From: Anaerolineae bacterium
Lineage (GTDB): Bacteria > Chloroflexota > Anaerolineae > Aggregatilineales > UBA3940
DNA length: 64,000 nt
Direction: 5' to 3'
Assembly: GCA_034435035.1 (NCBI GenBank)
Contig: DAOTXW010000060.1
Coordinates: 1,586 to 65,585 of the forward strand
This document shows positions 6,949 to 48,871 of this stretch, piece after piece. Each line of letters starts with the position of its first letter. Position 1 is the stretch's first letter. The position numbers and the translations under genes were made by a program. Under the pieces are notes generated by a model. The model was not told the origin of the DNA. It made no database searches and saw nothing but the letters and a program-made list of their open reading frames with translations.

Positions 6949-8730
6949 ATGTCCGATCGTGTAGAAACTGTTTCGCAGGGAGCGGGGCCGCGCGGGCTGC
7001 TGATTGCGCTGCGCCGTCTGGGGCGGCGCCTGTTTAGCATCCGCTACCGCTATGAGGATGTGCTCGACCGGCAGCGGGCTTCGGCGCTGGGCGTTATGTG
7101 CCTGCTGTTTGGCCTGATGGGCATGCTGGGCACACTGGCGCTGATCCTTTTCTTCCCGGAGGTTGCGCCCCGCCGCATGGCGATCCCGAATGTCGTCATG
7201 GGCCTTCTCTACCTGCTGCTGGTGCAGCAGGTGCAGACGGGCCGCCTGAGGCGGGCCAGCTTCGGCTTCATCGCGCTGGCTTTAGCCGTCCCCACCATCC
7301 TGAACCTGGCTTTCCAGTTCATCCCCTCGCAGGCGGCCTTCCTGAGTCTGTCGATCCCGGTGGTGGCTGCTTCCCTGCTGCTGGGGCCGCTGTGGTCCTT
7401 TGCGGCTGCCGGCCTGGCGATGCTCAGCGTGGCGGGCATCAGCCTGATGGAGTATCAGCGGCTGGCCGCGGCGCTGGGCGCGGATGCCCTGGCCGGCGAG
7501 GCGGCCCGGCTGCGCCTGGTCGCGCTGATCGTCGCCTTCCTGATGAGCATGCTTGCGCTGTTCGCCTGGCTGCTGACCACCAGCCTGACGCGCTGGGCGG
7601 AAAGCGCTCAGCGTCGCGCCCGCCAGCTGGAAGCCGCCGCCGTCATTAACGAGACGGCAGCGGTGACTGTTAACTTAAGCACGCTGCTGAATGTCGTGGT
7701 GGAGCGTATCCGCGACGCGTTCGGCTTCTACCACGCGCAGGTGTTCCTGATCGACCCGGAGGGACGTCTGGCCCGCCTGCAGGCCAGCACGGGCCGCGCC
7801 GGCCTGGCGCTGCTGGCGCGCGGCCACGCGCTGCGTGTCGGCTCGCAGTCGATGGTCGGGCAGTGTGCCTTCCTGGGCGAACCGATCGTGGTCAATGACA
7901 CCAGCCTCAGTTCCGTCTGGCGGCCCAACGAACTCCTGCCCGACACCCGCGCCGAGCTGTCGCTGCCGCTGCGGGTGGGCGACAATGTGATCGGGGTGCT
8001 GGATGTGCAGTCCACCACGCCCGGCGTCTTTGAGCCGGACGACGTGCGCTCGCTCAGCATCATGGCCCAGCAGCTCGCCACGACGATTGAGAAGACGCGT
8101 CTGCTGGACGCGCTGCAGGCGCGCGCTGAGGAGAACCAGCGCCTGTACGAAGAGTCGCAGTCCAGCCTGAGGCAGATCGAGGACCTGAACCGCCGCCTGA
8201 CCCGCGAAGGCTGGAGTGACTACCTGGCCGCGCGGCGGGCCGGCGGCACGCTGGGCTACACGCTGGCTCAGGGCGCGATCGAGGCGGACTCGAGCTGGAC
8301 GGCGCCGATGCGGCAGGCTTACCAGGGCGAACACAGCGTGATCGTCAGGCAGGATCAGAATGCGCATATCGCGGCGGTTCCCCTGCGCGTCCGTGGTGAG
8401 GTGATCGGCGTGCTGGAGATGGAGCGCGGGGGCAACCGCCCGTGGACCGATGAAGACCTGGAGATCGCCGAGACGCTGGTTGACCGCCTGTCGGTCGCCA
8501 TCGAGAACGCACGCCTGTTTGAGCAGGCGACGCAGGCCACCGAACGCGAGCATGTCATCAACCAGATCGCGCAGGATGTCCAGTCGGCGCAGACGGTGGA
8601 CGACATCCTCCAGTCCGCGCTGGCAGACCTGCGGTCGGTGCTGGGCGCGTCGCGCGGCATTGTGCAGATCAGCCCCCGGGCCGAGACCCGGTCGCGTACC
8701 GGTCACACCGGGCCGCTGGGGCGGTCGTAA
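6949..8730 (+). CDS. Polytopic membrane GAF sensor protein with no recognisable output domain (array paralog)
   Basis: Only a 6-nt gap from the upstream stop. Multi-TM N-terminus. Array-type GAF (FGFYHAQVFLIDPEGRLARLQASTGRAGLALLARGHALRVGSQSMVGQ..IGVLDVQS). LNRRLTREGW linker. Second GAF-like half (VPLRVRGEVIGVLEME..AIENARLFEQ). Confidence 0.85.
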   Translation: MSDRVETVSQGAGPRGLLIALRRLGRRLFSIRYRYEDVLDRQRASALGVMCLLFGLMGMLGTLALILFFPEVAPRRMAIPNVVMGLLYLLLVQQVQTGRLRRASFGFIALALAVPTILNLAFQFIPSQAAFLSLSIPVVAASLLLGPLWSFAAAGLAMLSVAGISLMEYQRLAAALGADALAGEAARLRLVALIVAFLMSMLALFAWLLTTSLTRWAESAQRRARQLEAAAVINETAAVTVNLSTLLNVVVERIRDAFGFYHAQVFLIDPEGRLARLQASTGRAGLALLARGHALRVGSQSMVGQCAFLGEPIVVNDTSLSSVWRPNELLPDTRAELSLPLRVGDNVIGVLDVQSTTPGVFEPDDVRSLSIMAQQLATTIEKTRLLDALQARAEENQRLYEESQSSLRQIEDLNRRLTREGWSDYLAARRAGGTLGYTLAQGAIEADSSWTAPMRQAYQGEHSVIVRQDQNAHIAAVPLRVRGEVIGVLEMERGGNRPWTDEDLEIAETLVDRLSVAIENARLFEQATQATEREHVINQIAQDVQSAQTVDDILQSALADLRSVLGASRGIVQISPRAETRSRTGHTGPLGRS

Positions 8731-8742
8731 AGGAGGGCGAGG

Positions 8743-26757: not shown

Positions 26758-26798
26758 CCTGTTGAAGCATTGCGCAGGCGCCTTACTGGAGAATCCCC

Positions 26799-27434
26799 GT
26801 GAGGACTGAAGAACCCCGCCTGACGCGGCGGACGCTACTGATCGGCGGTGGGCTGCTGGCGCTGGGCGTGATCATCGCCCTGGGCATCCCCCTCGTCCTG
26901 TTGGCGATCACGCCGCATTTCGAAGGCTCCGCCTACGATGATCCGCCGATCGTCGAGGATTTCAGCCTGAGCCGCGCCGACGGCGGCACCTTCCGCCTGA
27001 GCGACTACCGGGGCCGGGTCGTGGCGCTGTACTTCGGTTACACCTCCTGCCCGGATGTCTGCCCGACTACGCTCTACGACCTGCGCCGGACGCTGGAGGC
27101 GCTGGGGCCCGATGCCGGCGAGGTGACGGTCGCCTTTGTGACGGTCGATCCGGCCACCGACACCCCGGAGCGAATGACGGACTACCTCTCATACTTTCAT
27201 CCGGCTTTCATCGGCTTACTGGGGACGCCCGCGGAGCTGCAGGCCGTCTACGATCGCTTCGGCGTGCAGGTGCTGCAGCCGGAGGAGACGGCCGGCGGCT
27301 ACGGGCTGGCGCATACAACCTCGGTGTTTGTTCTGGATCGCGCGGGCCGGCTGCGGCTGAGGCTGCACTACGGGGCCTCGCCGGAGAGCATGGCCCGCGA
27401 TCTGCGCATTCTTATCAAGGAGAGAGGATCGTGA
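26799..27434 (+). CDS. SCO1/SenC-family copper chaperone (thioredoxin fold)
   Basis: Signal anchor, then ..ALYFGYTSCPDVCPTTL.. (CxxxC) and ..HTTSVFVLD... Confidence 0.88.
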   Translation: MRTEEPRLTRRTLLIGGGLLALGVIIALGIPLVLLAITPHFEGSAYDDPPIVEDFSLSRADGGTFRLSDYRGRVVALYFGYTSCPDVCPTTLYDLRRTLEALGPDAGEVTVAFVTVDPATDTPERMTDYLSYFHPAFIGLLGTPAELQAVYDRFGVQVLQPEETAGGYGLAHTTSVFVLDRAGRLRLRLHYGASPESMARDLRILIKERGS

Positions 27435-36125: not shown

Positions 36126-36642
36126 TAAATAGCTCCTCGGTAGCTTAAAAATGATGCGCGGCCAATGATACAGGGCGGCGCCCGGCCTCACAGGTAGGGA
36201 ATCCCTGTAGATCGGTGTTTCATCCGCGCCTGCGCCTGGCGATGAAAGACCAGATGTTCTACTGACCGCCGCTGTCTTCGAGCCCCGGTGATTTTCTTAA
36301 CATTCCGGGCGCCGGCCCGGATGCAGCCCCGGTCGGCGGGTCGGCCCCTGCCTCTGGCGGTCTGCGTCCGGCGCCGGCGGGAGTCGATCAGGCAAACTCT
36401 ATGCAAACAATTTTACAAACCGGCCACCTTAAAGAATGGAACTTTTTAAGGCGCGGGCATTGTTTTGACGCCCCGGACTCTGCTAAGATGGGGTTGCCAG
36501 CCGCACTCTGGACGCTTCTGTGCGCTGACACCCGTTTCACCGGCAACCCGATCCATAATCCGGACAGCCCGCATGCCCTGTGGGGGCTGCTGAGGCGCCG
36601 CTTGATTCTGAGAGACAGCGAACGGGCATCGTGACCACTGCT

Positions 36643-38067
36643 ATGAGCGATCCGCCGCCGAGCGCGCAGACCATCTGGGATACCGCCTACGGACAGCTCC
36701 AGCTCCAGATGCCGCGGGAGACGTTCGATACCTGGCTGCGCGGCACCCGCCTGATCGCGCATGAGGACGGCACTTATATCCTGGGCGTGCCGAACATCTA
36801 CGCCCGCGAGTGGCTGGAGCACCGGCTCAAGAGCATCATCCTGCGCACGCTCGGCCAGATCGCCCGGCGCAGCGTCGAAGTGCGCTTCATCCTGTGGGCG
36901 GAGCAGGCGGCGCAGCCCCTGCACGATGCCGGGCCGCTGCTGGCCGACCTGGAGCCGCCGCAGGAGGCCGCGCCGGCCTTTGAGCCGGCCCACGCCGGTG
37001 AAACCGGCCTCAACCCGCGCTACACCTTCGAGGTCTACGCCCCCGGCCCCTCCAACCGGCTGGCGCTGGCGGCCGCCCGGGCGGTCGTCGAGGCGCCGGG
37101 GACGCAGTTCAACCCTCTGCTGGTGCATGCCGATGTCGGGCTGGGCAAGACGCACCTGCTGCAGGCGATCGGGCATGCCTGCGCCGATGCCGGCCTGCGG
37201 GTGCGCTTCGTCCCCGCCGAGACCTTCACCAATGACCTGGTGGCCGCCATCCGGGGCCGTCGCATGGAGGCCTTCCGCGACAAGTACCGTGCGCTGGATG
37301 TCCTGCTGATCGATGACCTGCAGTTCATCGCAGGCAAGGACTCGACTCAGGAGGAGTTCTACCATACCTTCAACGCGCTGGCAGACGGGGAAGGCCAGAT
37401 CGTGGCGGCGGCCAGCGGCCCCCCCGGACAGCTGCCCCGGCTGGACGTGCGCCTGGTCTCCCGCTTCGAGGGCGGGCTGGGGGTGGAGATCGAGCCGCCT
37501 GATTTCGAGACGCGGCTGGCGATCCTGGGCATCAAGGCCCGGCTGCGCGGCTTCGACGGCCGCATCCCGCTGGAAGTGCTGGAGCTGATCGCGGAGGAAA
37601 CGCCGGGCAGCGTGCGCGATCTGGAGGGTGCGCTCAACCGCCTCATCGCGGCGGCGATGCTCACCGGCGAAGTGCCCGGGCTGAGGCTGGCCGAGCGGGC
37701 CATCGAGCAGATCGGGCGGGAGCGCCCGCCGGAAGGGCACCTCGCGCTCGCCGATCTCATCGCCGCTGCTGCCGAGTATTACGGCGTTAGCCCGGACGCG
37801 CTGGCCGGGCGCGATCGCTCCCGCGAGGTCTCGGCGGCGCGCCAGGTGGTGATGTACCTGGCCCGCGAAGTCGCCGGCGCCTCCCTGGCCGAGATCGGCG
37901 AGGCGCTGGGCGGGCGCAACCACAGCACGGTGCTGTACGCCATCGAGCGCGTGGCCGACCTGGTGGCCGCCGATTCCGAGGTGCGCCGTCAGGTGCAGGC
38001 GCTGCTGCGCAGCCTGAGCGCCGGGCAGCGCCTCCCCGTGCCGCAGCCGCGCGCCCGCCGCCGCTGA
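36643..38067 (+). CDS. dnaA: Chromosomal replication initiator protein DnaA
   Basis: Domain I (..WDTAYGQLQLQMPRETFDTWL..), Walker A (..GLGKTHLLQAIG..), Walker B (..LLIDDLQF..), and domain IV (..SREVSAARQVVMYLARE..LAEIGEALGGRNHSTVLYA..). An alternative GTG start lies at 36631. Confidence 0.93.
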   Translation: MSDPPPSAQTIWDTAYGQLQLQMPRETFDTWLRGTRLIAHEDGTYILGVPNIYAREWLEHRLKSIILRTLGQIARRSVEVRFILWAEQAAQPLHDAGPLLADLEPPQEAAPAFEPAHAGETGLNPRYTFEVYAPGPSNRLALAAARAVVEAPGTQFNPLLVHADVGLGKTHLLQAIGHACADAGLRVRFVPAETFTNDLVAAIRGRRMEAFRDKYRALDVLLIDDLQFIAGKDSTQEEFYHTFNALADGEGQIVAAASGPPGQLPRLDVRLVSRFEGGLGVEIEPPDFETRLAILGIKARLRGFDGRIPLEVLELIAEETPGSVRDLEGALNRLIAAAMLTGEVPGLRLAERAIEQIGRERPPEGHLALADLIAAAAEYYGVSPDALAGRDRSREVSAARQVVMYLAREVAGASLAEIGEALGGRNHSTVLYAIERVADLVAADSEVRRQVQALLRSLSAGQRLPVPQPRARRR

Positions 38068-38094
38068 ACCCCGCCGCGCCGGGACGAAACGAAA

Positions 38095-38117
38095 ACGCCG
38101 CGCTCCACACGCGGCGT
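38095..38117. terminator. Stem-loop after dnaA (ACGCCGCG-ctccaca-CGCGGCGT)
   Basis: 8-bp GC stem 28 nt after the dnaA stop, between convergent genes. The T-tract is weak. Confidence 0.4.
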
Positions 38118-38156
38118 CGTGGCTTTCCCGCGACGGGCATCAGCCCGCGACGGGCA

Positions 38157-38768
38157 TCAGCCCGGCCCGGAATAGCGCTGCTCCCGGAACGGGTCGGCAT
38201 CGTTGTGGTAGCCGGCCTGCTCCCAGAAGCCGGGGCGATCCCGGTCGGTGAACTCCAGCGCCCGCAGCCACTTGGCGCTCTTCCAGAAGTACCGGCTGGG
38301 CACCAGCGACCGCAGCGGGTAGCCGTGATCCGGCTCCAGCGGCTGGCCGTTGTAGCGGTAGGCCAGCAGGACATCATCCCCCAGCATGATCTCCAGCGGC
38401 ACGTTGGTGGTGTAGCCGTACTCGCAGTGGGCGATCACGAACTTCGCCTCCGGCCTGACCCCGACCAGCCCGGCGATGTCCCGGAAGCGCACCCCTTCCC
38501 AGACGGTATCAAACTTGCTCCACCGGGTGACGCAGTGGATGTCGCAGGTGATCTGCGTGGTGGGCAGGGCGGTGAACTCCTCCCACGACCAGGTCATCTC
38601 GCGCTCCACCAGCCCGAAGGCCCGCAGCGTCCACGTCGCCAGGTCGGTGCGCGGCACCGGGCCGTAGTGCAGCACCGGGAACTTGAGCGTCAGCGACTGC
38701 CCCGGCGGCAGCCGCCCTTCCTTGGCCATCTGCGCTTCCAGCCGCGCGCGCTCTGTGTCGAATAGCAT
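38157..38768 (-). CDS. Sulfite-oxidase-family molybdopterin-binding oxidoreductase (YedY/MsrP-like catalytic domain)
   Basis: ..[14 protein letters not shown].. (conserved Mo-ligand Cys context), ..[20 protein letters not shown].., ..GFWEQAGYH... The ATG at 38768 is preceded by GGAGGG. Confidence 0.8.
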
Positions 38769-38918: not shown

Positions 38919-39983
38919 TTACAGGGGCCGCCAGGGCAGCGGCTCGTTGCGGTCGCGGCCCGGCACGTAGTGGAGCCGCTCCTGCATCGGGCGGGTGAGC
39001 GCACGGTTGATGGCGCACAGCGGGATGTTCTGCGGGCAGGTGGCCTGGCACATGCCGCAGGCCGAGCAGCTCATCAGCCGCTGGCTGTGCTGAATCAGCG
39101 CGGCGATGAAGCTCGTCTGCCCCTGGCCCAGCGCCGCCGAAAGCTCCTCGCTGCACATCGGGCATGCCTGCAGGCACTCCCCGCACAGGTTACACTGGCT
39201 CAGGTAGCCGAGGATCGCGCCCAGGCTGGCATCCCGCAGCCCCAGGGATTCCAGTTTGCGGTCGGCGGCCTCCTGCCGCTGCTCGCTGAGCCGCCAGACG
39301 GCTACCTCGCGCTCCACCGTCTCGCGCTCGGTCGCCAGCCGGTCGGTGAGGGCGGCCAGCCGGAAACGGGCATCGTCGCGTTCGCTGGCGATCACCAGCA
39401 GCTTCTGGCGGGCGTCCAGCCCGATCAGGCCGACGAGGATATCCGCCGCCAGGTAATCGGCGCTGGGGCGGTCGCACAGCTGGCAGGCGGCGCGGTAGCG
39501 GTAGGGCGCGATCTGGCCGCGCTCCGCGAAGCGCAGCGATTCGTGCATCAGCCACAGCGGGTCTTCAGGGTGCCCGGCGCTGACTTCGTGATAGAAATCC
39601 TCGTCATAGGTGCCGAGACAGTCCACGCCGATCAGCACCACGCGGCCCAGGTCGATCTGGCCGCGCTTGGCCAGCTCGATGACGGCGCGGACCTCGCAGG
39701 GCCGCAGCAGAGCCGCAAAGGTCAGGCCCGGTTCAGCGCCGAGGGCCTGGCGCAGCGCCAGCGCGGCGTTCTCGGTCATCAGGGGCACCAGCGGGTTGAT
39801 CCGCTGCGCGCCTTCCCGGTCCCCCAGCGACTGGGCGCGGGCCACAGGCAGCCCATCCTGCAGCAGCTCCACCGGCGCGAACAGCCGGTCGGCGATGCCT
39901 TCGGCCAGCATCTTCCCGGCGAAGCGGCGCAGCGCAGCCACCGTATCATTGTTCTGTACGTCCACTACCCGGCTGATCCACAT
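38919..39983 (-). CDS. FrhB/FdhB-like flavin/Fe-S protein with two C-terminal [4Fe-4S] motifs
   Basis: ..LLRPCEVRAVIEL.. resembles the FrhB PCQ region. CNLCGECLQACP and CSACGMCQATCP are present. The ATG at 39983 is preceded by GGGGAGGA, 14 nt after the upstream stop. Confidence 0.65.
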   Translation of the reverse strand: MWISRVVDVQNNDTVAALRRFAGKMLAEGIADRLFAPVELLQDGLPVARAQSLGDREGAQRINPLVPLMTENAALALRQALGAEPGLTFAALLRPCEVRAVIELAKRGQIDLGRVVLIGVDCLGTYDEDFYHEVSAGHPEDPLWLMHESLRFAERGQIAPYRYRAACQLCDRPSADYLAADILVGLIGLDARQKLLVIASERDDARFRLAALTDRLATERETVEREVAVWRLSEQRQEAADRKLESLGLRDASLGAILGYLSQCNLCGECLQACPMCSEELSAALGQGQTSFIAALIQHSQRLMSCSACGMCQATCPQNIPLCAINRALTRPMQERLHYVPGRDRNEPLPWRPL

Positions 39984-39997
39984 GGTATCCTCCCCGG

Positions 39998-41587
39998 TCA
40001 CCGGGCTGGCGCCGCGGCCGGCAGGGCTTCGACGACCAGCTCCATGATATCGCGCACGACGAGCCGATCCTGCACGCCCATCATGCGCACTGCGTCCTCC
40101 AGCATGTTCATGCAGAATGGGCAGGCGGTAGCCAGCACATCTGCCCCGGTTTCCAGCGCCTCGCGGACGCGCTCCGGCGCGGAGCGGGCCTCCGGGTTGG
40201 TGCCCTCGAACCACATTCGGCCGCCCCCGCCGCCGCAGCACAGCCCGGCGTCGCGGGCATGCGCCATCTCGACCAGCTCCACGCCGGGGATGCTGGCCAG
40301 CACCGCCCGCGGCTCGTCGTAGATGCCGTTCTGCTTGCCCAGGTAGCACGGATCGTGATAGGTGACCCGGTGGCTGGCCCCGCCCCCGTTGAAGGTGAGC
40401 TTCCCCCCGGCGATCAGCGCGGCCATCGCCTGGGTATAGTGCTGCACCGGGTAGCCCGGGGTGGTGTAGCGGTGGCTGAGCGCGTCGAAGCAGTGCGGGG
40501 AGAGGGCGATCAGCGCCTCGGTCTGCACCGCGGCGAGCTTCTCATTGCCTTCCTCCACCAGCATCTCCATCAACCCTTCTTCGCCCAGCCGGGCCACCTC
40601 GCTGCCGCAGCAGGTTTCCTCGCCGGCCAGCGTGCCGGGGTTGATGCCGGCGGCCCGCAGGCCGGCCACCAGCGCCCGCGCGATCTGCTGGCCGCGCGGG
40701 TCGTAGGCGGCCTGGCAGCAGATCTGCAGCGCGGCATCGACCGGCCCCTCCAGGGCGTTGGGCAGCGCCAGGTCGGCCATCCACGCCCCGCGGTCGGCCC
40801 GCGCCAGCTCGAAGGGGTTGCCCTGCCGGAAGATGCTGGTCAGCGCCACACCCAGCGGGCGCGGGGTCTTGCCTTCTTCCACCAGCTGCGCCCGCAGCGC
40901 GGGCACGATGGCCGCCGGGCTGAGGTCTTTGGGGCAGCGCACCGTGCAGGAGTAGCAGGTGGTGCAGTCCCACACGCCGTCCTGCAGATCGGCCATGCGC
41001 TCGGCGCGGGCCGTGTCGCGCGGGTCGTTCAGGCGCAGGAAGCGCTTGAGCAGGCCGTGCGGCCCGGGGAAAGCCGGGTCCAGCCCGGACATCTGACAGG
41101 AGGAGTAGCACGCGCCGCACATGATGCACGTCTCGGCGTTGTGGATCGCCGCTACCGCCTCCGGGCTGACGCGGAACTCGCGCTCCGGCAGGGTATCCGG
41201 CGGGATCAGCCACGGCTTGGCGGCCACGTACTGGTTCCAGAAGGGCGCGCGGTCTACCACCAGGTCCTTGATGACGGGCAGGTAGCGCAGCGGCCCGACC
41301 GTCACCTGACCCTCGGGGCCGGCGGCGTCGGCCAGCGGGGTCTCGCACATCAGCATGTGGCGCCCGTTGATCTCGGCGGCGCAGCTGCCGCAGATCGCAT
41401 GCCGGCAGGAGCGCCGGAAGGTCACGCTGCCATCGACCGTCGCCTTGATGTCCTGCAGCGCATCCAGCACAGTCATGCCGGGCTGCGCCTCTACCTCGAA
41501 CGCCTCCAGATGCGGCTCGCTGTCCACATCCGGGTTGAAGCGCTGGATGCGGACGGTAATGGATCGGGGATGTCCGTTGTTAGCCAT
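39998..41587 (-). CDS. sdhB: Succinate dehydrogenase/fumarate reductase Fe-S subunit fused to two CCG (HdrD/GlpC-like) domains (TfrB-like)
   Basis: [2Fe-2S] ..RRSCRHAICGSCAAEINGRHMLMC... Ferredoxin motifs CIMCGACYSSC and CTTCYSCTVRCP. CCG motifs ..EETCCGSE.. and ..GLCCGGGGG... Confidence 0.85.
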   Translation of the reverse strand: MANNGHPRSITVRIQRFNPDVDSEPHLEAFEVEAQPGMTVLDALQDIKATVDGSVTFRRSCRHAICGSCAAEINGRHMLMCETPLADAAGPEGQVTVGPLRYLPVIKDLVVDRAPFWNQYVAAKPWLIPPDTLPEREFRVSPEAVAAIHNAETCIMCGACYSSCQMSGLDPAFPGPHGLLKRFLRLNDPRDTARAERMADLQDGVWDCTTCYSCTVRCPKDLSPAAIVPALRAQLVEEGKTPRPLGVALTSIFRQGNPFELARADRGAWMADLALPNALEGPVDAALQICCQAAYDPRGQQIARALVAGLRAAGINPGTLAGEETCCGSEVARLGEEGLMEMLVEEGNEKLAAVQTEALIALSPHCFDALSHRYTTPGYPVQHYTQAMAALIAGGKLTFNGGGASHRVTYHDPCYLGKQNGIYDEPRAVLASIPGVELVEMAHARDAGLCCGGGGGRMWFEGTNPEARSAPERVREALETGADVLATACPFCMNMLEDAVRMMGVQDRLVVRDIMELVVEALPAAAPAR

Positions 41588-41645
41588 AGGTTGCTCCTGA
41601 ACGCTTTTCCCCCCGCCGCCGCCGGCGGCCGGGGGGCGGCGCAGT

Positions 41646-43436
41646 CTAGTACTTGCGCTCCTGCGGCGGATACCGGTCGTAATCGATCACCACCGGGCGA
41701 TAGCTCAGCGCCGGGCCCTCCGCGGTCTGCGTGACCAGCGTATGTTTGAGCCAGTCCGTATCATTCCGCGCCGGGTAGTCCGTGCGGGCGTGCGCGCCGC
41801 GGCTCTCCGTGCGGGCCAGCGCGCTGACGGTGATCGCCTCGCCGAGGGCCAGCAGGTAGTCGGTCTCCAGCGCCCCCAGCAGATCGGTGTTGAAGCGGCT
41901 GGAGCGATCCATGATGCCGGCGTGCGCAAAACGCGCCTGCAGCCCGTGGATCGTCTCCAGCGCTGCGGCCATCTTCTCGCCGCTGCGGTAGATGCCGACC
42001 TGATCGGTCATGGTCGCCTTCAGAGCCTGCGCGATCGGTTCGACGCGCTCATCGCCGCCGTCCATCAGCCGCTCGATGCGCTCACAGCTGCGCTGCGTGG
42101 GGTCGCCGGCGAGGGGCAGCAGCGGCGCGCCGCCCTGTACGAAGGCGGCCATCGCCAGCCCGGCCCGCCGCCCGAAGACCGAGGCATCCAGCAGGCTGTT
42201 GGTGCCCAGCCGGTTGGCCCCGTGGACGCTGATGCAGGCGCATTCGCCCGCTGCGTACAGGCCGGGGATCGGCGTGCCCTGCGCATCGGCGATCACCTGC
42301 CCGTTGACATCGGCGGGGATGCCGCCCATGCTGTAGTGGGTGGTGGGCTGGATCGGGCACGGGTCGTCGATCACATCCACCCCGGTGAAGGTCAGGGCGA
42401 TATCGCGCACCTGCGGCAGACGCTCCAGGATCTTCGCGCGGCCCAGATGGCGCAGATCCAGGTAGATGCCCTGCCCGTCCGGCCCGATGCCGCGCCCTTC
42501 GTCGATCTCGGTCTGCTCGGATCGGCTGACCAGGTCGCGCGGGGCCAGTTCCATCTTGGCGGGGGCGTACTTCTCCATGAACCGCTCGCCGAGCGCGTTC
42601 AGCAGATAGCCGCCTTCGCCGCGGCAGGCTTCGCTCATCAGGATGCCGTGCCGGTAGATGCCGGTGGGGTGGAACTGGACGAACTCCATGTCCATCAGCG
42701 GGACGCCCGCCCGGTAGGCGATGGCGACGCCGTCGCCGGTGTTGGCGTGCGCGTTGGAGGTGATCTTATAGGTGCGGCCGTAGCCGCCGGTCGCCAGCAG
42801 CACGGCCCGGGCGCGGATCGTGAACAGCCGCCCGGTCAGGATGTCCATCGCCACCACGCCGCGGCAGGCGCCGTCCTCGATCAGCAGGTCGAGCAGGCTC
42901 CACTCGCTGTAGAACTGCACGCCGTGGCGGAGCGCCTGCTCGTGGACGGTGTGCAGCAGCACGTGGCCGGTCCAGTCGGCGGCGAAGCAGGCCCGCGGGG
43001 TGCTGTGCCCGCCGAAGCGCCGCTGGCCGATGCGCCCGTCGGCGGTGCGGCTGAATACGCAGCCCATGTGCTCGTATTCATACACCACGTCGATGGCGTC
43101 CTTGACCATGATCTCGATGGCGTCCTGGTCACCCAGCCAGTCCGACCCCTTGATGGTGTCGGCCATGTGCAGCTCCCAGGAGTCAGCCGCCGGGTCGCCG
43201 TCGGGGACCTGCTCCAGCGGGCCTTCCGGCCCCGTGCCGGCCACCGGGCGGGTGTTGCCCAGCGCCGCCGCGATGCCGCCCTGCGCCGCGCCGCTGTGCG
43301 ACCGCAGCGGGTGAATCTTGGACAGGACGGCGATGTCCTTCACGCCCTGGCGGCCCGCGGCCAGCGCCGCCCACGTGCCGGCCAGCCCGGCGCCGACGAT
43401 CACAATGTCATGGGTTAGCGTCTCTGCGTTCTGCAT
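41646..43436 (-). CDS. sdhA: Succinate dehydrogenase/fumarate reductase flavoprotein subunit
   Basis: [11 protein letters not shown].. FAD fold, ..[16 protein letters not shown].. (covalent-FAD His context), ..HPTG.., ..[10 protein letters not shown]... Confidence 0.92.
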
Positions 43437-43455
43437 GGTTCCTTCTTTCTGGCTG

Positions 43456-44001
43456 TCAATGCTGCGGCCTGCTCATCGCCTCGACGCTGGCGCGGGCGCG
43501 CGCCGCCAGCCGCCGGACATCGGCGACCCAGGCGCGGGTCTGCGGCAGCGTCTCCGGCAGGGAGTCTTCGGTGCGGGTCAGGTCCTCGACCAGCGCGGAC
43601 AGCTGCGGGGTGGTGTGCTCGCGCAGCACGTCCCGCGCCCGCTGCAGCCCCGGTAGATCGGCCAGGGCGGCCTGCAGGCCCGCCAGATCGCGCTCTGTCT
43701 CGGCGATCGCGGCGCTCTGCGCGTCCAGCCGCTCCTGCAGGGCGCGCGTCAGCGCCTCCCAGCGGCAGACCTCGCCGGAGCGGCGGCGCAGGGCCTGCGC
43801 CAGCAGCCCGTGGCTGATCGCCAGCCCGCCGCCCACCCAGATCAGCACCCAGATCGGCTGGCGCAGCCACAGGGTCAGCAGGGCCGCGCCGGCCAGCACG
43901 CCGGCCAGCGCCGCCGCGTTGATCCGCAGCGCCCGGCGCTGCACCCGGCACAGGGCCGGGGCGGGAGCCGTCCCGCCTCCGGAAGCAGCCTCATGCGTCA
44001 T
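43456..44001 (-). CDS. Hypothetical membrane protein (two TM helices plus a coiled coil) embedded in the respiratory cluster
   Basis: ..[37 protein letters not shown].. followed by a heptad-like helical region. It overlaps the upstream gene by 11 nt. I recognise no family motif. Confidence 0.55.
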
Positions 44002-45898
44002 GCGGCGTCTCGCCCTCCAGCCGGGCGGCCAGGATCTCCGCCACGTCCATGACGCGCACCCGGTCGCCCAGCCCGCGCGAGCGGATCGCGTCGTCCATCA
44101 TCAGCAGGCAGTACGGGCAGGCCGTGGCGACCACGTTCGCCCCGGTCTGCAATGCCTCGTCCAGCCGTCGGTGGTTGATGCGGGTCTCGGCGTCGGTCTC
44201 CATCCACATGCCGCCGCCGCCCCCGCCGCAGCAGAAGGTGTCGGCGCCGCGGCGATCCATCTCCACGCGGCTCACACCGGCTGCATCAAGCAGCTGGCGG
44301 GGCGCCCCGGTGATCCCGTTGTAGCGGGCCAGGTAGCATGAGTCGTGGAAGGTGACGATCTCGCCTGGCTGCCCGTTGGAGGCCCGCGGCGCGGCTCCGG
44401 GCAGGCCGGCCAGCAGCTCGCTGGCGTGCTGCACGCGGAACTCCCCGCCGAACTGCGGGTATTCGTTCTGGAGCGTGTTGTAGCAGTGCGGGCAGGCCGT
44501 CACGATGCGCTCGAAGCGGTATTCCTTGAGCGTCTCGATGTTCTGCTCGGCCAGCACCTGATAGTTGTATTCGTAGCCCAGCCGGCGGGCCGTCTCGCCG
44601 CAGCATACTTCCGCGTCGCCCAGCACGGCGAAGTCCACGCCGGCGGCCTTCAGCAGCCTCACCAGCGCGCGCCCGGCCTGCCGGTTGCGTTCGTCGAAGG
44701 CCATCGCGCAGCCGGTGAACAGCAGCACGTCAGTATGCTCGCCCGGCTCCAGCACGCGCACGTCCAGCCCGTCGGCCCAGGCCATGCGGTCGCCGGCGGG
44801 GATGCCCCACGGGTTGCCCTGCCGCTCGACGTTGCGCATCGTCTGGGCGATGGGCCGCGGCGCGGCGCCGGCGCTCAGCGCCTGGAAGCGCCGCAGATCG
44901 ACCACCGCGGCGGGCGGGTTGGTGAAGGCCGGGCACACCTTGAGGCAGGCCCCGCAGGTGGTGCAGTACCAGGGCAGCTCGGCGCCCAGCGCCTCGATCA
45001 GGGCGGGATCTTCGCGGTGGCCGTTGGTCTCCACCAGCGAGCCGACCATCACCCCGCGCAGGCTCTGGATCAGCGCCCGCGGCGAGTAGGGCATCCCGCT
45101 GATCGTCGCCGGGCACACGTCCTCGCAGCGCCCGCAGCGCACGCAGGCGTCAAAGGACAGCAGCTGCCAGGGTGTGAACTCGGCCACCTGGCCCACGCCC
45201 AGCGTCTCGGCCTCCTCGATGTTCTCGATGGGCGGCAGGGCGCTGTCCTTGCGGCGCGGCCGGGTGATGATGCTCAGCGGGGTGTTGATCAGGTGGCGCA
45301 GCTTGGTGAAGGGGATGCTCGCCACCAGCGCCAGCCCGGCCAGCATGTGCATCCAGTACAGGACGCTGTGCGCAGCCTGAGCGGTCTCCAGCGGCATCCC
45401 CCGCAGGGTGCTGGCGACCCAGCGGCCCACCGGCGACCAGGCGGCCCAGGGCGGATCTGTCGTGTAGAGGCGCAGGCCCTCGGTGGTGAAGCCCAGCAGG
45501 GGCACCAGGAACAGGAGGATCAGCGCATACCAGTCATCCCAGCGCGTCTCCAGCGACTTCGGGCGCAGGACCAGCCGCCGGAAGGCTGCCATCAGCACGC
45601 CGGCGCAGATCGCCAGCCCGGCCAGGTCCATCCCCAGCTCGAAGGCCAGGTACAGCCCGCCGCGCGGGAAGCCCAGCTCGATGAAGGGCACGAACAGCTG
45701 CATCTGCATCAGGATGATGATCGTGCCGAGGATCTGGATAGTCATGCCCCAGAAGATCAGCCCGTGCATGACGCCGGGGTAGATCTTCGCCCAGACGCGG
45801 CGCTGCAGGATGGCGTCAGCCAGGAAGTCGCGCGCGCTCAGCCCGATCTGCTGGAGGGTGACGCGCGGCGGGTGTGTGGTCACGGTCTGGGCGCTCAT
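43991..45898 (-). CDS. Membrane-bound HdrE/NarI-like (putative di-heme b) domain fused to an HdrD/DsrK-like Fe-S/CCG domain
   Basis: Five or six N-terminal TM helices with conserved His (..GVMHGLIFWG.., ..HSVLYWMHMLAGL..). CVRCGRCEDVCP and CTTCGACLKVCP. CCG motifs ..EVCCGET.. and ..TFCCGGGGGG... Confidence 0.8.
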   Translation of the reverse strand: MSAQTVTTHPPRVTLQQIGLSARDFLADAILQRRVWAKIYPGVMHGLIFWGMTIQILGTIIILMQMQLFVPFIELGFPRGGLYLAFELGMDLAGLAICAGVLMAAFRRLVLRPKSLETRWDDWYALILLFLVPLLGFTTEGLRLYTTDPPWAAWSPVGRWVASTLRGMPLETAQAAHSVLYWMHMLAGLALVASIPFTKLRHLINTPLSIITRPRRKDSALPPIENIEEAETLGVGQVAEFTPWQLLSFDACVRCGRCEDVCPATISGMPYSPRALIQSLRGVMVGSLVETNGHREDPALIEALGAELPWYCTTCGACLKVCPAFTNPPAAVVDLRRFQALSAGAAPRPIAQTMRNVERQGNPWGIPAGDRMAWADGLDVRVLEPGEHTDVLLFTGCAMAFDERNRQAGRALVRLLKAAGVDFAVLGDAEVCCGETARRLGYEYNYQVLAEQNIETLKEYRFERIVTACPHCYNTLQNEYPQFGGEFRVQHASELLAGLPGAAPRASNGQPGEIVTFHDSCYLARYNGITGAPRQLLDAAGVSRVEMDRRGADTFCCGGGGGGMWMETDAETRINHRRLDEALQTGANVVATACPYCLLMMDDAIRSRGLGDRVRVMDVAEILAARLEGETPHDA

Positions 45899-46323
45899 TC
45901 TTCCATCACTCCAATCGTGATCAGGCCGTCCTCGACGCTGACGGGCAGGGCCAGCAGCGGGGAGGGCGGCGGCCCGGAGATGACATGCCCATCGCCGGGG
46001 TCGAAGTAGCCCTCATGGCAGGGGCAGTCGATCTGCCCGGTGTCGGGGTTCCACTTGACGATGCAGCCGAAGTGCGTGCAGACCGCCGAGTAGGCTCGCA
46101 GCCCGTCCGGTGTGTGGATCACCAGCGCGGGCCAGCGCCCGTAAGGCACGGTGATGGACTGCCCGACCGGCAGCTCGTCCGGCGGGCCGACCGGCACCGG
46201 CTCGGAGGGCATTTCCTCCAGCTTCTTGGGGTAGAAATAGGCGATCATCGGGCCCAGCACAGCGACCCCGCCCAGGGCCAGCGCGGCCCGGTTCACCCAG
46301 CGCAGGAAAGTGCGGCGGTTCAT
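45895..46323 (-). CDS. Rieske [2Fe-2S] subunit of a cytochrome bc/b6f-type complex
   Basis: Tat-like N-terminus MNRRTFLRW... Rieske boxes CTHFGC and CPCHEG. Confidence 0.9.
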   Translation of the reverse strand: MNRRTFLRWVNRAALALGGVAVLGPMIAYFYPKKLEEMPSEPVPVGPPDELPVGQSITVPYGRWPALVIHTPDGLRAYSAVCTHFGCIVKWNPDTGQIDCPCHEGYFDPGDGHVISGPPPSPLLALPVSVEDGLITIGVMEE

Positions 46324-46325
46324 GG

Positions 46326-46727
46326 TTAGCTCAGCTCCCCCCAGATCGACAGCGCGATGGCGACGACCAGGAACACACCCACCCCGATCGCGCGGAGGCG
46401 CTGCGCCCGGTGCGAGTCGGGTTTACGGTCCAGGAACGGCCACAGGATCAGCGCGATCAGCCCCACGATGGGCACCATCACGCCGACCGTCTCCGGGACG
46501 AACTTCAGCAGCTGGTACAGCGCCAGGAAATACCATTCGGGCTTGACGTGCGCAGGCGTGTTCATCGGGTCGGCGGGGACGCCGGTCCCGACCGGGAAGG
46601 CCATCGCGATCGCCCCGACGACCAGCAGGATCACCGTGATGACGGCGGTGACACGCGCCTCGGTGCGGACATGATCCGGGTAAAAGGGGATGCTGTCCCC
46701 GTCGTAATGCTCAGCCTGTTCAGCCAT
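46326..46727 (-). CDS. Cytochrome bc/b6f subunit IV (C-terminal half of a split cytochrome b)
   Basis: ..NTPAHVKPEWYFLALYQLLKFVP.. (PEWY motif). Three TM helices. The ATG at 46727 is preceded by AAGGAG. The longer ORF-track start is unlikely. Confidence 0.88.
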   Translation of the reverse strand: MAEQAEHYDGDSIPFYPDHVRTEARVTAVITVILLVVGAIAMAFPVGTGVPADPMNTPAHVKPEWYFLALYQLLKFVPETVGVMVPIVGLIALILWPFLDRKPDSHRAQRLRAIGVGVFLVVAIALSIWGELS

Positions 46728-46750
46728 AGCGATGCTCCTTCGAGGCAGGT

Positions 46751-47722
46751 CTACAGCGGCCTGGCGATGCCCTGCCGCCGGATCATCAGGAAGTGCAGCC
46801 CCATCAGGGCCAGCAGGGCGATCGGCAGCACGATGACGTGGCCGGCGTAGAAACGGCTGAGGGTGGTGGCCGTGACGTTCCACCCGTCGCGCAAAAAGAC
46901 CATCACCAGCGTGCCGACATCGGGGACGCCGCCGGCGATCTCGGTGCCGACGGTGGTGGCCCAGTAAGCCCGCTGATCCCACGGCAGCAGGTAGCCGGTG
47001 AATCCGAAAGCCAGGGTGACGATCAGCAGCAGCATCCCGCCCACCCAGTTCAGTTCACGGGGGGCGCGGTAGGCGCCGGTGATGAACACGCGCATCATGT
47101 GGGCGATGCACATCACGATCATGCCGTTGGCGGCCCAGTGATGGATGCCGCGCACCGCCGCCCCGAAGCGCACCTCGTTTTCAATGTACTGGATGCTGGC
47201 GTAGGCGCTCTCCGGGGTGGGCGTGTAGTGGAAGGCCAGCATGATCCCGGTGATGGCCTGTACCACGAACAGGAAGGCGGTGATGCCGCCCAGGCAGTAG
47301 AACCAGCGCCGCGCGTAGTTCGGCACCGGCTTGCTGAGCGCCTTCTGCAGGGGGGCGACCACATCGTAGCGCTCATCGACCCAGTCCACGGCTCGCAGGG
47401 TCAGCGGGCGCCACGGCCTGCGTGTCACCCAGGCGCTGGCGCTGCGGTACATGCCGAAGGCCAGCGCCAGCCCGGCCAGCCCGAACGCCCCCCAGCGCGA
47501 GGGCGGCGTCCAGATATTGGTATCTTCGCCGGACAGGTGGCAGTGCAGGCAGGTATCCATCTCGACCGGGACCGGCCCGGCGGGGGCGGGCGCTTCCAGC
47601 GCGGCTGCGCTCACCGCGACGGTCCGCGTGGCGTGCGCCGGCAGCGGGATCACGGCGACCGTCACCAGCACAGCCAGGATGCCCAGCAGAATCAGAAACA
47701 GACGACGGGGTGGTGCAGACAT
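46751..47722 (-). CDS. Cytochrome b6-type subunit with an N-terminal membrane-anchored extension carrying a CxxCH heme-c motif
   Basis: Cytochrome b core (..FYCLGGITAFLFVVQAITGIMLAFHY.., ..RGIHHWAANGMIV.., ..GYLLPWDQRAYWAT..). The extension has a signal anchor, ..EMDTCLHCHLSGED.., and an extra TM helix. Confidence 0.88.
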   Translation of the reverse strand: MSAPPRRLFLILLGILAVLVTVAVIPLPAHATRTVAVSAAALEAPAPAGPVPVEMDTCLHCHLSGEDTNIWTPPSRWGAFGLAGLALAFGMYRSASAWVTRRPWRPLTLRAVDWVDERYDVVAPLQKALSKPVPNYARRWFYCLGGITAFLFVVQAITGIMLAFHYTPTPESAYASIQYIENEVRFGAAVRGIHHWAANGMIVMCIAHMMRVFITGAYRAPRELNWVGGMLLLIVTLAFGFTGYLLPWDQRAYWATTVGTEIAGGVPDVGTLVMVFLRDGWNVTATTLSRFYAGHVIVLPIALLALMGLHFLMIRRQGIARPL

Positions 47723-47927
47723 AGACTCATCTCCGGAGATGTGCAGCTGCACAGGGCCGGGGTCGATAGGAAAACGGCAGGCGCCCCGGCGAGGGTGTCT
47801 GTCTACAGGGTAACGGGAACAGTCCCGGCCCGTCTATCGGGCCGGGGGCTGAGATCGCGCAGGCGGGGGGCTGAAATCGCCGGGGAGCGGCTGGGTCTCC
47901 CCGTCAGGGTGATTTGGAGGGGTTCCC

Positions 47928-48005
47928 TGACCTCACCCCCGTCCTCGCCCCGCCCGGACTCCCCTGCTCCGCAAACGCGGAGCGGGGGACTGAGGGGGTG
48001 AGGTT
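47928..48005. repeat. Palindromic REP/MITE-like element, copy 1
   Basis: TGACCTCACCCCC..CTCCGCAAACGCGGAG..GGGGGTGAGGT. The outer 11-bp arms and an inner 6-bp hairpin are self-complementary. It is about 90% identical to the copy at 48761-48834. Confidence 0.8.
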
Positions 48006-48128
48006 CCCCCTGCGGCGATTCGCCTCGCCCGATACCCTGGTGCCGGGGATGGGCGGCCCGGCGGCGACTATTCCCACCCCCGCGCAAGTGGTACACTCTC
48101 TGATGCGGCAGCGCGCCGGGGCGGGTGA

Positions 48129-48415
48129 ATGACATATCAGAAGCTGGTCTTCCGTGTCCATGCCATCCAGCGCATGTTCGAGCGCAGCATCCAGGATGAG
48201 GATGTCCGTACTGTTCTGCGCCAGGGTGAGGTGATCGAGGCGTATCCGGACGATACGCCATATCCCAGCTACCTGATGCTGGGATGGGTGGGCGCCCCCT
48301 GCATGTCGTGGCCGCTGATGTGGCGCAGGACGGCCAGACGATTGTGATTACTGCCTACGAGCCGGATTCCCGGCTGTGGGAGGCGGACTTCAGGACCAGG
48401 AGGAGCCAGCCATGA
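48129..48415 (+). pseudogene. DUF4258-family toxin gene disrupted by a 1-nt frameshift near 48291-48293
   Basis: Frame 1 reads ..LVFRVHAIQRMFERSIQDEDVRTVLRQGEVIEAYPDDTPYPSYLMLGWVG, then becomes nonsense. Shifting one nucleotide restores RPLHVVAADVAQDGQTIVITAYEPDSRLWEADFRTRRSQP*, whose stop overlaps the antitoxin ATG (ATGA at 48412-48415). Confidence 0.7.
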
Positions 48416-48639
48416 AGTGCCTGATCTGCAAACACGGCGAGACAGCGTCGGGCACTGCCACTGTCACGCTGCAGCGCGGCGACCTGACGCTGGTAGTCAG
48501 GGGGGTGCCGGCGCAGATATGTGGCAACTGCCACGAAGAGTATGTGGACGAGGCCGTCGCCGCCTATCTGCTGCAGGCCGCGGAAGAAGCCGTTCGGGCC
48601 GGGGTTCAGGTAGAAGTGCGAGACTACCTGGCCGCCTGA
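48412..48639 (+). CDS. YgiT/MqsA-type zinc-finger antitoxin
   Basis: MKCLICKHGE..(x)..CGNCHEEYVDE is a CxxC..CxxC zinc ribbon. It has the usual partner position downstream of DUF4258. Confidence 0.75.
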   Translation: MKCLICKHGETASGTATVTLQRGDLTLVVRGVPAQICGNCHEEYVDEAVAAYLLQAAEEAVRAGVQVEVRDYLAA

Positions 48640-48760: not shown

Positions 48761-48834
48761 TGACCTCACCCCCTCCTCGCTCCGCCCGGACTCCCCCTCC
48801 GCAAACCCGGAGAGGGGGACTGAGGGGGTGAGGT
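48761..48834. repeat. Palindromic REP/MITE-like element, copy 2
   Basis: TGACCTCACCCCC..CTCCGCAAACCCGGAG..GGGGGTGAGGT, in the same orientation as copy 1. Confidence 0.8.
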
Positions 48835-48871
48835 CTCCGGGCTGCCCCCCTTCTTCCCTGTTGGCTGATGG

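Follow-up and report, generated by a model that had tools for sequence, protein, structure and literature searches.

A minus-strand operon of an Anaerolineae bacterium as a possible mosaic of a Rieske/cytochrome b-EMO unit and an anchor-less succinate dehydrogenase

Two redox units in one operon

We analyzed a 64-kb stretch of DNA from an Anaerolineae bacterium (contig DAOTXW010000060.1 of assembly GCA_034435035.1; hereafter the window) and focused on eight minus-strand genes (38919-47722) that encode a Rieske/cytochrome b complex, a membrane protein of the EMO/EtfD family and a succinate dehydrogenase without anchor genes. Our interpretation, for which we find belief and doubt about evenly balanced, is that this operon combines, as a mosaic, two redox units that are conserved independently of each other and meet at the menaquinone pool, and that it does not encode one obligate complex, although a physical supercomplex is conceivable. 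Unit A consists of cytochrome b, subunit IV, the Rieske protein and the EMO-like protein, often with an FdhB-like flavin/Fe-S protein, and it is a conserved unit in Anaerolineae-type relatives. Unit B consists of SdhA and of an SdhB fused to two CCG domains (SdhB-CCG). A sequence-only reading of the same DNA had proposed that the eight genes form one dedicated electron-transfer chain, a proposal that did not survive the comparison with related loci: these split into the conserved unit A and a separately occurring SdhA-SdhB/CCG pair. The genes, from 5' to 3' on the minus strand, and one motif are:

46751-47722, minus strand: cytochrome b6-type subunit, 323 aa (Pfam Cytochrome_B, 2.5e-51)
47537-47551, minus strand: CLHCH haem-c attachment motif, residues 58-62 of cytochrome b (sequence motif)
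46326-46727, minus strand: subunit IV, 133 aa, C-terminal half of the split cytochrome b (Pfam Cytochrom_B_C, 3e-16)
45895-46323, minus strand: Rieske [2Fe-2S] protein, 142 aa (Pfam Rieske, 9e-12)
43991-45898, minus strand: EMO/EtfD-family protein, 635 aa (PDB 9OJN, M. smegmatis EtfD, E=8.4e-88, membrane and soluble parts)
43456-44001, minus strand: 181-aa protein with two transmembrane (TM) segments and a cytoplasmic helical tail (hydropathy; no Pfam or NCBIfam family)
41646-43436, minus strand: SdhA flavoprotein, 596 aa, cytoplasmic (FAD_binding_2, 1.9e-111; Succ_DH_flav_C, 6.5e-41)
39998-41587, minus strand: SdhB fused to two CCG domains, 529 aa (Fer2_3, 5e-33; two CCG, 1.2e-28)
38919-39983, minus strand: FdhB/ElpB-like flavin/Fe-S protein, 354 aa (profile against PDB 9T1S_M, 2.6e-41)

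The listing of open reading frames (ORFs), a filter on the G+C-content of third codon positions (GC3) and public gene calls were concordant for these eight genes, and their order and spacing are those that the sequence-only reading had described (gaps of 23, 2, -4, -11, 19, 58 and 14 nt). All the domains that it had named passed hidden Markov model or profile tests, with Pfam models or, for the FrhB-like domain, with a family profile. Public calls matching our operon calls were found on an identical contig (CAYVJV010000011.1) from a metagenome-assembled genome (MAG; GCA_964451875.1), and the operon genes are also present on two Logan contigs (SRR10095373/4). The window has a G+C-content of about 69%, and the closest homologues of its proteins carry the annotations Anaerolineae, Anaerolineales or Chloroflexota. 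No gene for an Sdh_cyt-type anchor, ETF, HdrA, FlpD, MvhD or FdhA/ElpA was found within the window, which agrees with the earlier remark that SdhC/SdhD genes are absent.

The Rieske gene is paired with an EMO-like gene

The fourth protein had been described as a fusion of NarI-like and HdrD-like domains. It is not an orphan: from its sequence, we assign it to the EMO/EtfD family, whose experimentally characterized members are the ETF:(methyl)menaquinone oxidoreductases of mycobacteria and syntrophs. The alignment with M. smegmatis EtfD covers residues 32-294 and 306-627, and Pfam models detected a Nitrate_red_gam domain (9e-13), two 4Fe-4S motifs and two CCG domains (2e-36); the NCBIfam scores for DsrK, TmcB and HmcF were far under the cut-offs. 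As in the characterized proteins (9OJN and the EMO of Syntrophus aciditrophicus, SaEMO), a single polypeptide combines a NarI-like haem-b domain with two cubane and two CCG motifs. The membrane domain presents four strong hydrophobic segments, a fifth helix being below the resolution of our crude hydropathy method. Three histidines (H45, H184 and H202) are invariant in 20 homologues and are the counterparts of H87, H233 and H251, which ligate the proximal and distal haem b of SaEMO; the distal-haem histidine is among them, and the spacing of 18 residues between H184 and H202 equals that between H233 and H251. A further histidine, H177, is invariant within the Anaerolineae clade. Mycobacterial EtfD presents CTG instead of CCG and a linear [3Fe-4S] cluster. 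In contrast, both CCG motifs of the window protein are complete, with five cysteines each, and the distal cluster would for this reason be expected to be Hdr-like.

HdrDE, DsrMK and the Tmc/Hmc modules likewise pair a cytochrome b of the NarI type with a CCG protein of the HdrD type, although the two parts are fused in the window. The Dsr, Tmc and Hmc systems add to this pair a second module, which interacts with quinones or carries periplasmic haem c; in the window, the second module is a Rieske/cytochrome b6 complex.

The loci used for comparison came from a metagenome scan, contig look-ups and tblastn searches with nine window proteins, and the locus counts include close relatives (L084 with L175; L087 with L169). 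All the EMO-like homologues with at least 52% identity belong to Rieske-linked units (the window, L084, L088-L098, L109, L168/L169 and L173-L175). Those with at most 44% identity are flanked by genes for EtfA (32 loci), EtfB (28 loci) and acyl-CoA dehydrogenase, as confirmed with Pfam. Unlike the genes of this latter type, the window gene follows a Rieske gene and is usually followed in relatives by an FdhB/ElpB-like gene; etfAB was found neither in the window nor in any of the Anaerolineae-type loci compared. Adjacency to etfAB is not obligatory for an EMO, since the etfD and etfAB genes of mycobacteria are unlinked.

The Rieske gene lies directly upstream of the EMO-like gene in all 15 loci with upstream sequence, and wherever gene calls were available (six loci) the two genes share 1-4 nt (4 nt in the window). 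This bears out the earlier suggestion that a complex-III-type module has a dedicated Hdr-like partner. Cytochrome b6 and subunit IV genes are located upstream in 11/12 Rieske-EMO-like loci, and an FdhB-like gene directly follows the EMO-like gene in 13/17 loci; L095 and L097 have no FdhB-like gene. One locus, L098 (9534-12924), presents the order Rieske-EMO-like-FdhB-like with no cytochrome b or subunit IV gene in the 9.5 kb upstream, which suggests that the link of the Rieske protein with the EMO-like protein may be closer than that with cytochrome b. In this locus, the Rieske gene comes after a 414-aa ORF without annotation. The pairing also recurs in a distant lineage, as indicated by the gene order of L157 (385-4273), a low-G+C metagenome contig: genes for a Rieske protein (213 aa) and an unsplit cytochrome b (445 aa) are followed by a NarI-HdrD gene, whose product is 35% identical to that of the window, directly before the contig end.

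Full-text literature searches for Rieske proteins with HdrD/EMO in Chloroflexi or Anaerolineae returned no published description of a Rieske-EMO unit, and only 'PetAB complexes' are mentioned for an Anaerolineae genome by Hug et al. (2013). EMO/EtfD itself has only recently been shown, by biochemistry and cryo-electron microscopy, to link beta-oxidation to menaquinone. The existence of a large Anaerolineae clade of this family that is tied to Rieske/b6 and FdhB/ElpB-like genes, and not to ETF, suggests a general membrane socket for cytoplasmic flavoproteins. Unit A also constitutes a concrete, purifiable candidate for an unusual variant of complex III in a very abundant and poorly cultivated group.

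Two unrelated contigs carry a 465-aa Lpd-like oxidoreductase gene (Pyr_redox_2/Pyr_redox_dim) beside the five-gene unit (L173, 3721-5121; L174, 11202-12599), and genes for 2-oxoacid dehydrogenase E1/E2 are close to this unit in L174.

The two units occur separately

The SdhA-SdhB/CCG pair was found in several contexts. It stands alone in two loci (L085 and L177), and in two others (L084 and L175) it is followed by a class I fumarase gene and is convergent with a complete five-gene unit A. In L176, it lies 1.7 kb from an HdrCBA-FlpD-FdhB-like-FdhB-like cluster. The insertion observed in the window recurs in L168/L169, together with an extra short-chain dehydrogenase gene. Reciprocally, the unit-A loci with long flanks are mostly devoid of Sdh genes (L091-L093, L098, L173 and L174), and the Sdh genes are therefore facultative neighbors of unit A. 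The SdhA-SdhB/CCG family reaches the Bathyarchaeia and Nitrososphaeria at about 40% identity, as known from sequence matches. The gene-order check in relatives that the sequence-only reading had called for was thus favorable for cytochrome b-subunit IV-Rieske-NarI/HdrD, often with an FdhB-like gene, but the Sdh insertion was recovered only in the window and in one other lineage.

The insertion is accompanied by a change of the downstream genes. In the Sdh-inserted loci (the window and L169), the subfamily-2 FdhB-like gene that belongs to unit A is missing, its slot is occupied by a lineage-specific 2-TM protein, and the operon closes with an FdhB-like gene of another subfamily (subfamily 1).

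Cytochrome b carries a conserved haem-c motif

The first three genes encode a b6-type complex. As in cyanobacterial b6f, Firmicutes QcrABC and heliobacterial bc complexes, b6 and subunit IV are separate halves of cytochrome b, and the sequences present a haem-ci cysteine (FYCLGG, from residue 141 of cytochrome b), the PEWY motif of the quinol-oxidation (Qo) site (residue 63 of subunit IV) and a Rieske protein with an N-terminus (RRTFL) resembling signals of twin-arginine translocation. Cytochrome b scored 260 bits with the NCBIfam model for cytochrome b6 and 267 bits with that for ExtP-type cytochrome b, both under the equivalog cut-offs, and sequence motifs indicate two pairs of haem-b histidines (H194/H208 and H295/H310). 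Subunit IV has three hydrophobic segments, and the Rieske protein has one TM anchor and the motifs CTHFGC (82) and CPCH (100).

Unlike the b6-type complexes cited above, the one described here comes without a separate cytochrome c1 or f in its operon, subunit IV is not fused to a cytochrome c, and EMO-like and FdhB-like genes are included in the operon. It presents a single CxxCH motif on an N-terminal TM hairpin of cytochrome b. According to hydropathy, this N-terminal extension comprises a signal/anchor helix and one extra TM helix; the loop between them, about 45 residues long, contains the CLHCH motif, whose presence had been pointed out before. The pattern CL[HS]CH..GE..G.WTP is kept in 6/6 full-length cytochromes b (L084, L088, L092, L093, L168 and the window). 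The motif is predicted to face the outside because the N-in topology of b6 is known. Since the operon encodes no separate c-type cytochrome (f, c1, di-haem c or subunit IV-c fusion) and CxxCH is its sole site for haem c, the motif likely takes the place of cytochrome c1 or f. If this is true, a cytochrome b hairpin with one haem-c motif would be an unusually small replacement for either of them.

CCG domains replace the membrane anchor of the succinate dehydrogenase

Neither SdhA nor SdhB-CCG has a TM segment according to hydropathy. SdhA contains the histidine motif for covalent flavin adenine dinucleotide (FAD), RSHS, and passes the TIGR01816 model (sdhA_forward; 734.6 for a cut-off of 727.35). 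In SdhB-CCG, a [2Fe-2S] domain is combined with two cubane motifs of four cysteines each and with two motifs for non-cubane clusters. Its B-subunit architecture, an SdhB followed by two CCG domains, is indeed that of the methanogen thiol:fumarate reductase TfrAB, as had been proposed, and the alignment with the TfrB model NF004898 covers positions 3-487 of 488 (E=1.4e-76). The first CCG motif is one cysteine short (SPHC instead of CPxC). The CCG half matches EtfD (9OJN, 1.2e-74) far better than HdrB (1e-10) and shares 40% identity with the soluble part of the EMO-like protein from the window.

The third cluster motif of the fused SdhB has four cysteines (CTTCYSCTVRCP), as opposed to the classical three (CHTIFNCIDACP) in unfused relatives, and C208, C211, C214 and C218 are invariant in 20/20 aligned fused proteins. 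A 4-Cys motif at this position is a hallmark of type E enzymes and of TfrB. Among the matches listed, four loci from Caldilineaceae, Promineifilaceae and Chloroflexia (L010, L012, L016 and L018) encode an SdhA that is 72-77% identical to that of the window; the next genes encode a short SdhB, in which the motif has three cysteines, and two Sdh_cyt anchors. Because near-identical SdhA proteins are paired either with a 3-Cys SdhB and Sdh_cyt or with a 4-Cys fused SdhB, the CCG fusion and the SdhCD anchor are, on these sequences, alternative solutions on nearly one catalytic core. The two forms offer a natural experiment on complex II anchors, and their comparison bears on the long-standing question of how a haem-less complex II of the CCG type reaches the quinone.

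The succinate:quinone oxidoreductases (SQORs) of type E (SdhABEF of Sulfolobus/Acidianus, the cyanobacterial enzymes and MfrABE of Campylobacter) resemble unit B in having no TM anchor, no haem and a CCG module in place of SdhCD, as well as in the fourth cysteine of the third cluster motif. However, the CCG module is fused to SdhB in the window and is not a separate SdhE, and gene order reveals no SdhF-like small gene conserved beside sdhAB in L084, L085, L169 and L177. The host also differs in being a probable menaquinone user, for which succinate oxidation is uphill.

A search of genome contigs with an SdhB-CCG profile listed mostly 374-aa HdrD-like paralogues, from which the phyletic spread of the fusion is not derivable. 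Stand-alone HdrD-like proteins of 374 aa (L004, L005 and L007, at about 10001-11100) are 46-50% identical to residues 138-522 of SdhB-CCG, and their genes cluster with FdhB-like and SdhA-like (33-35% identical) genes. Such proteins may have given rise to the CCG domain of the fusion.

The FdhB/ElpB-like and 2-TM proteins

The last of the eight proteins had been called FrhB/FdhB-like. A profile built from 32 homologues matched FdhB/ElpB chains over their full length (9T1S_M, 2.6e-41; 7BKB_E, 4.3e-38; 8RVU_E, 1.1e-33), and the AlphaFold2 model (predicted local distance difference test, pLDDT, of 94.5) gave Foldseek TM-scores of 0.74 with ElpB, 0.71 with FdhB and about 0.49 with FrhB. Given these matches and the superposition of the model, we assign the protein to the FdhB/ElpB type of flavin/Fe-S proteins, whose fold comprises an FrhB-type core and a C-terminal domain with two [4Fe-4S] clusters (7BKB, 8RVU and 9T1S; Fdh-Hdr and Elp-Hdr complexes). 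The earlier name therefore holds for the full-length homology to FdhB/ElpB, but the Pfam domain FrhB_FdhB_C was matched below its gathering score (E of 6e-4 to 1.5e-3; 20.2 vs 23.3 bits). This domain is matched at E<=0.01 by 29/32 family members, the best value being 3.8e-10. The protein has no TM segment by hydropathy and contains twelve invariant cysteines (4 + 8), enough for about three [4Fe-4S] clusters, compared to four clusters in ElpB. It also differs from FdhB/ElpB in its context: the window has none of the genes for FdhA/ElpA, MvhD or HdrA, and the putative partner is a CCG-domain protein (SdhB-CCG or the EMO-like protein).

The window protein belongs to subfamily 1, with 51-62% identity to the copies of L169/L170 and 30-35% identity to the unit-A copies. 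We could thus rule out that it represents the displaced fifth gene of unit A. Elsewhere in Anaerolineae, members of subfamily 1 are found beside HdrA and an MvhD-like FlpD (L170-L172 and L176), in HdrA-FlpD-FdhB-like clusters, downstream of which lie genes for an SdhB-like Fe-S protein and for a flavoprotein of the FAD_binding_2 family. Three such clusters (L170, 4839-14592; L172, 1-8453; L176, 8207-15394) encode a giant HdrA-like protein, an MvhD-like FlpD, two FdhB-like paralogues, a 225-aa Fer2/Fer4 SdhB-like protein and a 549-aa FAD_binding_2 protein. From their gene content, they look like a bacterial complex of the Elp/Fdh-Hdr type with a fumarate-reductase-like end.

The 181-aa protein with two hydrophobic segments remains a hypothetical protein without family match, as initially described. 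Its gene overlaps the EMO-like gene by 11 nt and occupies the slot of the relatives' FdhB-like gene, and a recognizable homologue (176 aa) is present only at the same position in L168/L169. A general role as an anchor of Sdh was rejected because the 2-TM gene is absent wherever SdhA-SdhB/CCG lies outside the arrangement of the window and L169.

Proposed paths of electrons and their weak points

In the proposed mosaic, the b6-type Rieske/cytochrome b complex of unit A would oxidize menaquinol and pass electrons to haem c, and the CxxCH haem on the outward N-terminal segment of cytochrome b would stand in for c1 or f. The co-encoded EMO-type protein would be the entry point into the menaquinone pool; its characterized relatives carry electrons from a cytoplasmic flavoprotein into (methyl)menaquinone. 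The input module in the cytoplasm would presumably be the FdhB/ElpB-type flavin/Fe-S protein and not ETF, with F420H2 (by homology), NAD(P)H or another carrier as the possible donor. Unit B would be the complex II of the cell, in which the C-terminus of SdhB has acquired an EMO-like two-CCG domain that replaces SdhC/SdhD. Assuming that the cluster motifs are all loaded, electrons would flow from succinate through FAD, the [2Fe-2S] cluster, two [4Fe-4S] clusters and the non-cubane clusters to menaquinone, as the probable immediate acceptor at the membrane surface, as in type E; the reverse direction would correspond to fumarate reduction.

Several points weigh against this mosaic of two units. 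Sdh genes lie beside unit A in three lineages (the window, L169 and L084/L175), which is more than pure chance would suggest for about ten unit-A loci with long flanks. Moreover, in the window and in L169 the subfamily-2 gene has given way to Sdh, the 2-TM protein and an FdhB-like gene of subfamily 1, which looks, from the gene order, like a functional substitution and not like a neutral insertion. Access to the quinone, or its reduction, by the CCG domain of the fused SdhB is a step that we infer from the comparison with known systems. The oxidation of succinate by menaquinone is uphill by roughly 100 mV, and a haem-less peripheral enzyme cannot spend the proton-motive force, which favors fumarate reduction or the participation of a partner with haem b, for example the EMO-like protein. 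A canonical sdhCDAB operon, etfAB genes or a second FdhB-like gene could be encoded elsewhere in the MAG, our search having covered the 64-kb window. Finally, the putative status of the cluster as an operon is based on the spacing of the genes and on one consensus match to a terminator.

Alternative readings

The main alternative, which we consider unlikely although it deserves attention, is that the EMO-like protein provides the membrane anchor and quinone site of SdhA/SdhB-CCG. The dehydrogenase would dock, as ETF does, on the non-cubane-cluster domain, either directly or with the 2-TM protein and the Fe-S chain of the FdhB-like protein as intermediaries; the NarI-like haems would cross the membrane and the proton-motive force would drive the uphill step, as in di-haem enzymes of type B. 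This possibility is attractive because succinate oxidation with menaquinone runs uphill and depends on a pair of haems across the membrane, an argument that holds if the quinone is menaquinone, and all three haem ligands of EMO are conserved, that of the distal haem included. The gene order is also suggestive: Sdh sits exactly between the EMO-like and FdhB-like genes in the window and in L169 and is adjacent to unit A in L084/L175, and the EMO-like gene is translationally coupled (-11 nt) to the 2-TM gene that precedes sdhA. In characterized EMO/EtfD proteins, the electrons of the flavoprotein enter at the same non-cubane-cluster domain. However, SdhA-SdhB/CCG stands alone in L085 and L177, and its family extends to Bathyarchaeia and Nitrososphaeria, where it is known from sequence matches. 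The 2-TM protein is likewise absent from L084, L085, L175 and L177. Finally, type E enzymes attach complex II to membranes through CCG proteins without haem.

It is also conceivable, but quite unlikely, that a soluble fumarate reductase is assembled from SdhA, SdhB-CCG and the FdhB/ElpB-like protein. Electrons from F420H2 or NAD(P)H would reach fumarate through the flavin and Fe-S clusters of the FdhB-like protein and the non-cubane clusters, in a TfrAB-like enzyme whose thiols are replaced by a flavoprotein donor and which might belong to an electron-bifurcating complex of the Hdr type. None of the three proteins has TM segments. The subfamily-1 gene is located 14 nt after SdhB-CCG in the window and also follows it in L087/L169, and subfamily 1 is found in the HdrA-FlpD-FdhB-like-FdhB-like-[Fer2/Fer4]-[FAD_binding_2] clusters of L170-L172 and beside SdhA-SdhB/CCG in L176. 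HdrD-like, FdhB-like and SdhA-like genes are similarly grouped in L004, L005 and L007, ElpB and FdhB have been proven to be F420H2-oxidizing input modules for Hdr, and fumarase genes follow SdhB-CCG in L084/L175. On the other hand, no FdhB-like gene accompanies the pair in L085 and L177, and the only nearby one in L084/L175 is a unit-A gene. The score of SdhA lies above the cut-off of the 'forward' equivalog, and the protein shares 72-77% identity with its counterparts from sdhABCD operons, whose enzymes are anchored in the membrane; HdrA, FlpD and FdhA/ElpA genes are all missing from the window. The use of F420 by this host would follow from homology, and a literature search on F420 in Anaerolineae returned no usable evidence.

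More speculatively, the Rieske, EMO-like and FdhB-like proteins might constitute an undescribed quinol-based bifurcating or confurcating respiratory complex, in which b haems and non-cubane clusters would link the oxidation of menaquinol at a Rieske-type site to a flavin in the cytoplasm and into which the anchor-less Sdh would be plugged in some lineages, including that of the window; we find this improbable. In its specific form, which we judge very improbable, these proteins, with or without cytochrome b6, would be a new complex that splits the two electrons of menaquinol (or confurcates in reverse), one electron being passed to the Rieske protein and the fused haem c and the other, via b haems and the chain of Fe-S clusters, to an acceptor of low potential in the cytoplasm, at the flavin of the FdhB-like protein. 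The idea is comparable to proposals for unusual Rieske/cytochrome b complexes of anammox bacteria. It would account for the adjacency of the Rieske and EMO-like genes in 15/15 loci and for their overlap, a link tighter than that with cytochrome b, for L098, and for the repetition of the Rieske-cytochrome b-EMO-like order in the distant L157; the conserved distal-haem histidine and H177, invariant in the Anaerolineae clade, would fit as well. Nevertheless, the argument is purely one of gene order, and a linear chain (donor to EMO-like protein to menaquinone, then menaquinol to Rieske/b6 to haem c) explains this order equally well. In addition, L095 and L097 lack the FdhB-like gene, and L098 may have a cytochrome b elsewhere.

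The reading as TfrAB, according to which SdhA/SdhB-CCG would be a genuine thiol:fumarate reductase oxidizing a pair of low-molecular-weight thiols at its CCG clusters, has next to no likelihood despite the end-to-end alignment and the presence of both CCG motifs: the curated equivalog cut-offs exclude both subunits (258.1 vs 385 for TfrB; 434.5 vs 718 for TfrA), SdhA is of the 'forward' type shared with anchored enzymes, the first CCG motif is incomplete, the CCG half is far nearer to the non-catalytic domain of EtfD than to HdrB, the only two proteins compared, and the host is a bacterium without evident thiol cofactor context or, in the window, any sign of coenzyme M/B metabolism.

Operon boundaries and neighboring features

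Three further features were located at the ends of the cluster:

47723-48128, no strand: divergent intergenic region upstream of cytochrome b, about 400 nt, presumed promoter region, with one copy of a palindromic repeat
38157-38768, minus strand: small molybdoprotein with the sulfite-oxidase fold, 203 aa (Pfam Oxidored_molyb, 4.9e-45)
38094-38118, minus strand: terminator-like hairpin directly behind the molybdoprotein gene, with a 10-bp stem (7 G-C pairs) followed by a T-rich tail (consensus match only)

The molybdoprotein gene is the ninth minus-strand gene of the region and starts 150 nt after the FdhB/ElpB-like gene. A consensus scan of the minus strand between 37900 and 49000 returned two overlapping terminator calls, which represent one site (38118-38094), and no terminator-like site inside the operon. 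The ninth gene is thus probably the last gene of the transcription unit. Its product matched SoxC and MsrP weakly, far under the cut-offs, and has no signal peptide; the gene is absent from the sister operon of L169. In a Desulfobacteraceae MAG (L027, 5831-6424), a homologue of the molybdoprotein (39% identical) adjoins a NarI-HdrD gene (33% identical), and it is possible, from this proximity, that the link between the two genes is recurrent.

At the other end, the intergenic region contained no coding frame with the GC3 signature of the genome, and a scan of the minus strand for the sigma-70 consensus, which is uninformative for the phylum of the host, gave no match. Rfam models had no match in the whole window. 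ARAGORN reported a 94-nt tRNA-Ala(cgc) on the plus strand (39660-39753), antisense inside the FdhB-like gene; this call is almost certainly a false positive, because no Rfam tRNA was found there and the DNA is G+C-rich and coding.

A G+C-rich element of about 76 nt, an imperfect palindrome, is present in two copies (47929-48004 and 48769-48835; 93-95% identical in the matched blocks) that flank a pair of plus-strand genes just upstream of the operon (48129-48347, DUF4258, and 48376-48639). The element resembles a repetitive extragenic palindromic (REP) sequence or a miniature inverted-repeat transposable element (MITE). A plus-strand gene for a SCO1/SenC copper chaperone (26766-27434) hints that the host may assemble a haem-copper oxidase and respire oxygen, which bears on the terminal acceptor of the Rieske/b6 complex. 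The dnaA gene (36580-38067, plus strand) is convergent with the operon and lies 90 nt past its last gene; the cumulative GC skew presented no clear turning point in the window, and the origin was not located. Finally, the first part of the window (1-16540, plus strand) encodes six consecutive paralogous GAF proteins, some with HAMP domains, followed by an 1888-aa hybrid histidine kinase with five GAF and two receiver domains.

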